From a virus, in IMG/VR virus record IMGVR_UViG_3300031088_000734: DNA of 64,000 nt. One strand, written 5' to 3'. The translations under genes were made by a program, and so were the position numbers. Under the pieces are notes generated by a model. The model worked only from the letters and a program-made list of their open reading frames with translations, did not search any database and was not told the DNA's origin. Position 1 is the stretch's first letter, and every line of letters begins with the position of its first letter. Below, piece by piece: positions 53,372 through 53,880 of the stretch.

Positions 53372-53406
53372 TTGCCAAAGGGTTTAAAATGTCGTATAAT
53401 GGCCCC
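53372..53406 (+). promoter_or_regulatory. stable-RNA-type sigma70 promoter with a GC-rich discriminator
   Basis: TTGCCA-17 nt-TATAAT followed by GGCCCC. Confidence 0.85.
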
Positions 53407-53833
53407 GTTGTAAAGCAGTAAGTAATCTTGGGAAGTTGGCTTAAAAGCAGCCATCTTATAATGAGTAGAGCGGTTGCCATAGGTGTTTGGGATTTAGTGA
53501 TGGTAAGCATCGGGTTTAAATGATTTAGCGGTCATTTGAGGGTATCGGTGACAAGTGAGCCACGGTTTGTCGAAATCGAATCCACATTAAAGTAGATTTT
53601 GCAGATCAAAACGTCTCAGCCAAAAACTCCCAGTTCTTGCAATAATGTAAGAATTCGCCGTGGTTGTGGTCTTGGTAAAGTAAGGAGGCACCCCAGAAAT
53701 GGTAAGGCCGAATTCTCTTTTGGCGTAATAGCACACCATGATTATGATTGTTTTCGCAACAAAACTGCCACTAAGGCTGACCTTAGCCCTCTAAAAGCTA
53801 AAGGGAACGGTTCGACTCCGTTGTGGTGGGCCA
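53407..53833 (+). ncRNA. large structured ncRNA containing a split 23S rRNA GTPase-associated-centre (H42-H44) mimic, a 256-nt insertion and a 3' tRNA-like element
   Basis: 53431-53466 and 53723-53736 match E. coli 23S 1055-1090 and 1091-1104 (42/50 by eye against the recalled sequence) with compensatory changes; bounded by a promoter and a terminator. Confidence 0.8.
53765..53833 (+). tRNA. atypical 69-nt tRNA-like element, anticodon CUA, short D-arm
   Basis: CTGCCAC/GTGGTGG acceptor, AAGG-ctga-CCTT mini D-arm, loop CT-CTA-AA, AACGG-TTCGACT-CCGTT T-arm, G-CCA end. Confidence 0.55.
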
Positions 53834-53843
53834 ACTTTAAACT

Positions 53844-53880
53844 AAATGCCAGCTCATAGCGATATGATGTTGGCATTTTT
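53844..53880 (+). terminator. intrinsic terminator of the ncRNA unit
   Basis: AAATGCCAGC-TCATA-gcga-TATGA-t-GTTGGCATTT plus T-run; next promoter TTGTCT-17-TATAAT at 53882-53910. Confidence 0.85.

Follow-up and report, generated by a model that had tools for sequence, protein, structure and literature searches.

The locus described here raises the question of what a near copy of part of the host ribosome is doing in a viral genome. We know of no free-standing copy of an rRNA domain in nature. Within the window, the whole 64,000-nucleotide stretch of DNA, from a large uncultured phage, that was analysed, positions 53372–53880 lie between an ORF of 319 amino acids that ends at 53353 and an ORF of 218 amino acids that starts at 53937. 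The G+C content inside the element is 43–44%, compared with about 32% in the surroundings. The region is predicted to specify a non-coding RNA of about 345 bases, with a mature core at approximately 53422–53745. A first-pass annotation of the DNA had proposed that this RNA carries a selected structural mimic of the GTPase-associated centre of 23S rRNA, and we followed up this proposal by computation.

The real E. coli gene rrlH (L062, 60–2963) served as the reference for all comparisons. Against it, 53431–53466 agrees with 23S nucleotides 1055–1090 at 29 of 36 positions and 53723–53736 agrees with 1091–1104 at 13 of 14, which reproduces the total of 42 of 50 that had been counted by eye. The eight differences are exactly those listed in the annotation: U1058A, G1068A, A1080U, U1082A, A1086U, A1089G, A1090U and U1101A. 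Six of the eight make up three reciprocal swaps, at 1058/1080, 1082/1086 and 1090/1101, and the other two are G1068A and A1089G. The annotation had assigned all three swaps to known pairs. The swaps are real, but the Rfam consensus structure shows no 1090-1101 pair, so its status as a known pair rests on crystal structures, in which we take it to be formed. Both loop adenines are retained, A1067 at 53443 and A1095 at 53727. The stem that had been proposed to close the domain, 53422–53431 with 53736–53745, pairs at nine of ten positions, one of them a G·U, and contains one U·U mismatch.

The E. coli H43 21-mer (at up to two mismatches) and H44 14-mer (at up to one mismatch) each occur once in the 64-kb window, both at this locus, and no match was found in any of 100 shuffled controls. 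When the element was compared with E. coli 23S rRNA by blastn-short, nothing was recovered except the two halves of the centre. Rfam and blastn-short searches found no further rRNA in the window or in the 179-kb record to which it belongs, as the annotation had stated, and an SRL-like 14-mer (at up to two mismatches) is absent from the window and from all 137 elements of the family described below. The Rfam bacterial LSU model aligns locally to 53429–53479 (51 nt; model positions 1094–1147) with 15 bits and an E value of 0.022. This score lies below the gathering score of 50 and H43 and H44 are not contiguous, so the RNA does not qualify as a member of RF02541. No tmRNA, GOLLD, ROOL or leader match was obtained with Rfam 15, either at the gathering score or at E values up to 10. 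The record holds a single copy of the element, no second one being found at up to nine mismatches in the 5′ half or up to five in the 3′ half.

Relatives of the element are numerous. In a blastn search against named phages, matches fell in unannotated gaps adjoining tRNA genes in the Pseudomonas phages Astolliot and UNO-G1W1 and in Aeromonas phage 4_4572. A 29-nt pattern covering 1062–1090 retrieved 57 viral contigs and no real 23S rRNA, and in all 57 an insert follows GAGU. The H44 half, preceded by UUUR, was found 24–334 nt downstream in 58 of 61 elements; two of the three exceptions are truncated where the locus ends, and the third (L040) has no 3′ half within about 860 nt. With the 18-nt 3′ half as the only query, more than 118 further contigs were found among the matches listed. 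Elements with both halves and the closing helix number 137, that is, the window's own and 136 from other records, which are phage contigs, named phages and a few bacterial assemblies. In all 137 the break falls at one and the same point, after 1090, where an insert of about 24–365 nt intervenes, and none of the elements lies inside a real rRNA gene.

The 3′ motif was also sought in 185,579 species genomes, where it occurs 20 times; 16 of these occurrences are true split elements. They are found in assemblies of Clostridia, Ruminococcus, Neisseriaceae, Bacteroidales, Flavobacteriia, Bdellovibrio, Phycisphaerales, Saccharibacteria and Parcubacteria, and are taken to be prophages or binned phage contigs. 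Full-length members were detected by a covariance model (R1, described below) in phages pf16 (96 bits) and XacN1 (84 bits), and a diverged subtype is present in Ralstonia phage RSP15. Paenibacillus phage Pd_22F, a candidate for an uninterrupted member, actually carries a true 23S fragment at the end of its record. The annotation knew of no described family of this kind. None is present in Rfam 15, and no description was found in the searchable full-text literature, a body of text that excludes subscription journals. The RNA family, which is large and phage-specific, appears to be undescribed.

Selection on the structure of the centre was tested with alignments of family members. Alignment A1 contains 43 distinct members, gap-free at both ends, with a structure taken from the Rfam LSU consensus and supplemented by the closing and insert helices. 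In A1, 91.2% of cells pair, compared with 71.0% in shuffles. The covariation score is 0.561 in the alignment and 0.173 when shuffled; none of 500 shuffles reaches 0.561, and slid controls give 0.11–0.17. Changes on both sides are seen at all ten pairs of the closing helix and at all five pairs of the basal helix of the insert. The pair 1058-1080 is G-C in 27 members and A-U in 16, with no mismatch among the 43. Because the pattern used to retrieve A1 fixes H43, the count was repeated on a second set of 60 distinct elements, retrieved solely through the 3′ half. In this set, 1057-1081 is A-U in 48 and C-G in 8 elements; 1058-1080 is U-A in 27, G-C in 19 and A-U in 8; and 1082-1086 is U-A in 24, C-G in 19 and A-U in 14.

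The non-canonical features of the centre are kept as well. In the set of 60, U1060 faces a U or C at 1078 in 59 elements, and R1056·A1103 is present in every one. U1066, G1071, C1072, A1077 and A1085 are each found in 60 of 60, A1084 in 56 and A1067 in 51, with a change in the remaining nine. The pair G1055-C1104 is conserved, and 1054-1105 is always Watson-Crick but covarying. Contacts from A1084 and A1085 to the 1054-1105 and 1055-1104 pairs are read here as the hinge triples of this domain (PMC1919483, which uses H. marismortui numbering; the conversion to E. coli numbering, with an offset of about 104, is our own). Beyond 1053–1055/1104–1106, the sequence of the closing helix is free and its pairing is ordinary Watson-Crick. 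Neither a conserved H42 sequence nor a kink-turn was seen in the family, and the part of the earlier functional reading that involves uL10 and the stalk is the weakest. At the junction between insert and H44, a UUU(G/A) linker is present in 41 of the 43 distinct members, the other two differing at the third position. The H44 pairs themselves are nearly constant among the 43 (1091-1100, G-C in all; 1092-1099, C-G in 42 and U-A in one). The H44 loop is the loosest part of the core: A1095 is kept in 39 of 43, 1096 can be either purine, and U, C and A all occur at 1097.

Covariance model R1 was built from 29 members with short inserts, excluding the window and its near relatives. In the 64-kb window it recognises this locus only, with 48.3 bits (E value 3.6e-14) at 53424–53594 and 22.9 bits (E value 6e-6) at 53662–53743; the match is split in two because the 252-nt insert is too long for the model to span. 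On the true E. coli 23S rRNA, at 1048–1111, R1 gives 55.5 bits. Since R1 finds both the phage locus and the E. coli centre, the resemblance is reciprocal and far beyond chance. The proposal of a selected structural mimic is therefore supported by three lines of evidence: family-wide covariation at pairs specific to the centre, invariance of the nucleotides expected to make its tertiary contacts, and reciprocal recognition by the covariance model. The copy in the window has the features of the split-centre family, namely a free-sequence closing helix ending in G1055-C1104, H43 followed by the 1082-1086 turn and GAGU, and then the insert helix; 53719–53736 is an exact match to the family 18-mer, which consists of the UUUR linker and an H44 copy ending in ACAC. 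Taken together, the comparisons show that selection maintains a free-standing copy of the minimal 23S domain to which uL11 binds (E. coli 1051–1108: the top of H42, H43 and H44).

How is this copy built? All its features lie on the plus strand. A predicted sigma-70-type promoter occupies 53372–53400, with the −35 element TTGCCA, a 17-nt spacer and the −10 element TATAAT, followed by a G+C-rich discriminator. It scores 11 of 12 in a consensus scan, and in the related loci L052 and L043 both hexamers are invariant while the spacer varies, in agreement with the promoter that had been claimed. A 5′ leader of 21 nt (53401–53421), partly conserved in the same two loci, precedes the closing helix; in the predicted fold its first five bases can pair with 53828–53832, for which the relatives give mixed support. 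The 5′ strand of the closing helix (53422–53431, equivalent to E. coli 1046–1055 at the top of H42) pairs with the 3′ strand (53736–53745, equivalent to 1104–1113). Between them lie, in order, the H43 copy (1057–1081) with the A1067 loop, at 53433–53457, which agrees with the E. coli 1059–1079 21-mer at 20 of 21 positions over 53435–53455; the equivalent of 1082–1090, at 53458–53466, in which a turn closed by A1082-U1086 is followed by GAGU; the insert; the UUUG linker from insert to H44, at 53719–53722; and the H44 copy (1091–1104) with the A1095 loop, at 53723–53736, which differs from E. coli at one of its 14 positions.

The insert, 252 nt between 1090 and 1091 (53467–53718), is multi-branched in the RNAalifold consensus. 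Its basal helix is formed by 53467–53470 and 53715–53718 (AGAG/CTCT). A bulged hairpin at 53687–53709, capped by a GNRA loop and with a covarying outer stem, is conserved, and the last 45 or so nucleotides of the insert are common to at least 25 other elements. The remainder aligns only with L052 (93%), L020/L051 and L059.

Downstream of the core, a 19-nt spacer with a small TTGTT/AACAA hairpin (53746–53764, conserved in L052 and L103) leads to a tRNA-like element of 69 nt at 53765–53833; both were read from the sequence, the latter with the help of relatives. The tRNA-like element has a 7-bp acceptor with G3·U70, a short D arm, a CUA anticodon loop, a canonical T arm, G73 and an encoded CCA. 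In L052 the acceptor pair A6-U67 becomes G6-C67, and the discriminator base is A73 in L052 and L103. The tRNA-like element is non-canonical. ARAGORN makes no tRNA call on the CUA cloverleaf with thresholds lowered to 60–80%, and its calls on the 3′ module at 80% or below, which comprise tRNA-Lys, tRNA-Leu and two that are ambiguous, are spurious. ARAGORN -m finds no tmRNA on the module even at the 80% threshold. No amber recoding was seen in the record, in which TAG ends 6 of 180 long ORFs and no long read-through frames occur.

The unit ends with a predicted intrinsic terminator at 53846–53880, a long hairpin in the minimum-free-energy fold with a T run after it. With its interrupted stem it escaped the consensus scanner, but hairpin and T run are kept in L052 and L103, with a change from G·U to A-U, and the claim of a terminator of its own holds. 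Judged in silico, a separate transcription unit is supported. The description of the RNA as stand-alone fits this copy, even though a tRNA-like element follows the core, and it fails for the family, whose members lie mostly in tRNA gene arrays.

The arrays are a prominent feature of the family. A tRNA gene lies within 3 kb of 93 of the 137 elements, with a mean of about four, and the approximately 560 tRNA genes within 3 kb of family members are all on the strand of the element. In 31 elements a tRNA starts no more than 60 nt downstream, and in 25 a tRNA ends no more than 60 nt upstream. This proximity suggests that the RNA is released by tRNA-processing enzymes. The copy in the window departs from what is a tendency of the family and not a structural requirement: ARAGORN calls no tRNA within 6 kb, and there is no co-oriented array. 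The record of 179 kb (CheckV 55% complete, 34% G+C, with a single element) has only three scattered tRNA genes, so this copy needs a promoter and terminator of its own.

No protein partner emerged from the neighbourhood. Clustering covered 1,738 ORFs located no more than 4 kb from one of the 137 elements, and the best cluster was present in 9 of 83 lineages; this lack of a conserved neighbour points to a universal host partner. RNA repair genes are neighbours in 4 of the 83 lineages; a Pnkp-Rnl1 fusion and, in XacN1, a 2′-5′ RNA ligase were seen beside members. Ribosomal_L11 and Ribosomal_L12 domains were not found in the 179-kb record, which is about 55% complete, and with no uL11 or bL12 gene in it there is no phage-side partner to point to. 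Among the ten ORFs neighbouring this copy none matches Pfam and one matches PHROG, as a virion structural protein. Paralogy among three downstream ORFs of about 215 amino acids is not significant.

Several known RNAs can be set beside the element. It shares with the 23S GTPase-associated centre a near-identical H43 and H44 sequence, the same pairs (1057–1059/1079–1081, 1062–1064/1074–1076, 1082-1086, 1087-1102 and 1091–1092/1099–1100) and the same non-canonical U1060·U1078 and G1056·A1103. Unlike the 23S centre, it lies outside an rRNA gene, is closed by a helix of free sequence, is always interrupted after 1090 by the insert helix and the UUUR linker, and is relaxed at 1096 and 1097. Ribosomal-protein leaders, such as the L10 leader (RF00557) and the uL1 site on the L11-operon mRNA, also imitate an rRNA protein-binding site off the ribosome. 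They are cellular, act in cis on their own operon and are loosely rRNA-like, whereas the phage RNA is a separate viral gene and an almost letter-for-letter copy, with no ribosomal-protein gene nearby.

6S RNA and the CsrB-type sponges are mimic RNAs that sequester proteins, and the 'ribosome-in-pieces' oligonucleotides of the thiostrepton region are man-made fragments used in vitro. The proposed logic of the phage RNA is the same, that of a free RNA bound by the recogniser of the site it imitates; 6S RNA and the CsrB sponges differ in having other targets and other folds. The tRNA cluster of phage T4 encodes stable RNAs. GOLLD and ROOL are large ornate RNAs of phages and Lactobacillales located near tRNA genes (bioRxiv 10.1101/2024.12.08.627333). 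Like these and the T4 RNAs, the element is a phage-borne structured RNA in or beside tRNA clusters with no assigned function, but it has no Rfam match to GOLLD or ROOL, which are not copies of rRNA. With tmRNA it has in common that one transcript carries both a tRNA-like end with G3·U70 and a large structured domain. It differs in having a full cloverleaf, anticodon included, as its tRNA-like part, in being followed by ordinary tRNAs in other phages, and in having no Rfam match to tmRNA.

What might the phage gain from such an RNA? The RNA probably imitates the ribosomal uL11 site away from the ribosome. The partners named in the annotation (uL11, uL10/bL12, translation factors, RelA, thiopeptides and toxins) are all candidates. 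In vitro, the isolated rRNA fragment 1051–1108 is sufficient for the binding of uL11 and thiostrepton. The best explanation as a whole, to which we assign a probability of roughly 0.5, is that the phage-specific family RNA serves as an off-ribosome decoy of the stalk base that is bound by host uL11. The RNA would fold alone into the compact fold of the centre and act in trans, off the ribosome. Host uL11 would bind it, and the resulting particle would titrate or divert whatever normally recognises the centre. The phage could benefit from less RelA activation, from protection against attack directed at the centre, or from altered traffic of translation factors. Processing would take place next to the tRNA-like element, as it would in the tRNA arrays of other members. 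As to purpose, titration or diversion through uL11 appears most likely, followed by counter-defence and then by a platform for factors or RelA; a relic and a cis-acting leader are disfavoured.

Some properties of the RNA sit uneasily with a decoy. The insert is placed inside H44. The H44 loop is looser than in rRNA, with variation at 1096 and 1097 and a changed A1095 in 4 of 43 members, and A1067 is changed in 9 of 60. The RNA would also have to compete with the cell's many ribosomes, of which there are tens of thousands.

The tRNA arrays invite a different reading, in which the RNA, with or without uL11, is a counter-defence decoy or inhibitor that soaks up or blocks an effector of the host or of a competitor, for example an ADP-ribosyltransferase or a nuclease, that attacks the centre. 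Such a role would parallel that of phage tRNA sets, which are thought to offset tRNA-directed nucleases. Some members adjoin RNA repair genes, the Pnkp-Rnl1 fusion and the XacN1 ligase among them, but such neighbours occur in only 4 lineages of 83. Hosts in many phyla fit a universal target, and the positions that vary in an otherwise frozen core are 1095–1097. A toxin for exactly this site exists, Tre23, which ADP-ribosylates H44 at about 1095–1098 (PMC8661411). Tre23 is, however, a type VI secretion effector, and a substrate decoy would cope poorly with a catalytic toxin unless it bound very tightly. We know of no anti-phage defence system aimed at the GTPase-associated centre, and we consider counter-defence unlikely. 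Still less probable is a platform role, in which translational GTPases (EF-G, EF-Tu, IF2, RF3) or RelA would dock on the particle of RNA and uL11. Translation would then be retuned, or the stringent response blocked, as a direct effect and not through removal of uL11. Isolated oligoribonucleotides of this region are said to bind EF-G in vitro (work attributed to Munishkin and Wool in 1997), and A1067 and A1095, the bases contacted by factors and thiostrepton, are kept in most members. Against a platform, the 137 elements contain no accompanying SRL-like 14-mer at up to two mismatches, no conserved H42 sequence or kink-turn was seen that could carry the factor-recruiting uL10-bL12 stalk, and loop positions 1096 and 1097 of H44 are relaxed.

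Could the element have no function at all? An rRNA-like sequence among tRNA genes, as found in most phages of the family, might be a neutral relic of captured rRNA or a functionless processing spacer of tRNA transcripts. We regard this as highly improbable, because the same split architecture recurs in over 130 copies, carried by phages whose hosts span many phyla, the pairs covary, the bases expected to make tertiary contacts are fixed, and this copy has its own predicted promoter and terminator. Moreover, the sequence does not appear simply to track host rRNA: 1058-1080 is A-U or G-C in Aeromonas and Pseudomonas phages and U-A in E. coli. Ribosomal-protein leaders are a known class of rRNA mimics, and a leader of that type, sensing free uL11 or uL10 and controlling downstream genes in cis, has the slimmest chance of the readings considered. 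The terminator ends the unit before the next gene, which has a promoter of its own; the flanks in other phages are tRNA genes and not ORFs; and no leader matches in Rfam at E values up to 10, nor do the downstream ORFs belong to a Pfam or PHROG family.

Returning to a decoy bound by host uL11, the size of the family and the diversity of its hosts imply that the function should be general. A bolder version, which we advance tentatively and hold to be rather doubtful, is that the free-floating copy of the stalk-base ribonucleoprotein (the RNA with host uL11) constitutes a new class of anti-host weapon in large phages of many phyla. It might shield translation from a so far unrecognised class of host immune effectors that target the centre, or switch off the RelA alarm, and the variable insert would be a payload or a docking module specific to each lineage. 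Should the RNA fold and bind uL11 as proposed, the element would be the first known natural, virus-borne, stand-alone copy of a functional rRNA domain, and mimicry of an rRNA domain would join the translation components already known from phages (tRNAs, a few ribosomal proteins and factors). The GTPase-associated centre would then be a battleground between phage and host, and the RNA would offer structural work a natural, compact and independently folding version of the centre. Several carriers are in culture and allow direct tests: the Pseudomonas phages pf16, Astolliot and UNO-G1W1, Aeromonas phage 4_4572 and Xanthomonas phage XacN1.

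Downstream of the centre-mimic RNA, the phage element that copies the GTPase-associated centre of 23S rRNA, lies a non-canonical tRNA-like element of 69 nt (window 53765-53833). It has a CUA (amber) anticodon, a G3.U70 pair and an encoded CCA; its discriminator is G73, whereas the relatives have A73. One acceptor pair shows a compensating change in the related copy L052. From the sequence, the tRNA-like element and the centre-mimic RNA are predicted to be one co-transcribed unit. Within the 179-kb record, TAG is the stop codon of 6 of the 180 ORFs of at least 150 aa, and no sign of in-frame TAG recoding was seen.

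GGCCC in the 5' leader (53401-53405) is complementary to GGGCC (53828-53832), where the tRNA-like element finishes on its 3' side. Such a pairing, if formed, could enclose the whole unit. A double change preserves the pairs in the related L043/L103, and L052 carries one mismatch. Inside the insert that splits the centre copy, a conserved module (53687-53709) is found again in at least 25 other elements. Its outer stem, G-N-C/G-N'-Y, covaries. The stem leads into CACCCC ... GGUAAGG, which is invariant and has UAA bulged out, and a loop of GNRA type closes the tip; AGUR precedes the module and GA follows it. No rRNA counterpart of this module was recognised.

The family includes a diverged subtype, present in Pseudomonas phage Astolliot (L001:1060-1390) and Ralstonia phage RSP15 (L187:895-1200), in which the top of H43 reads GAAGTAGCC and H44 is GGTGT-loop-ACAC. 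In Astolliot, this copy is in tandem with a standard one, immediately upstream of it. The locus at the end of the Paenibacillus phage Pd_22F record (L191:890-1000) was rejected as a family member, as it is a genuine, uninterrupted 23S rRNA fragment, which probably stems from packaged DNA or from host DNA that was assembled into the record. Some family members are adjoined by RNA repair genes: one for a T4 Pnkp/Rnl1-type protein that fuses kinase, phosphatase and RNA ligase (L067:7048-9240) and, in XacN1, one for a 2'-5' RNA ligase (L189:230-880).

Nearly all large ORFs tested across the window (1-64000) are orphans. Ten ORFs, of 211-965 aa, gave no Pfam match and a single PHROG match, to a virion structural protein (41156-44053, minus strand). 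The sole tRNA called by ARAGORN in the window, tRNA-Arg(CCG) at 46957-47033, lies 6.4 kb upstream of the centre-mimic element on the same strand.
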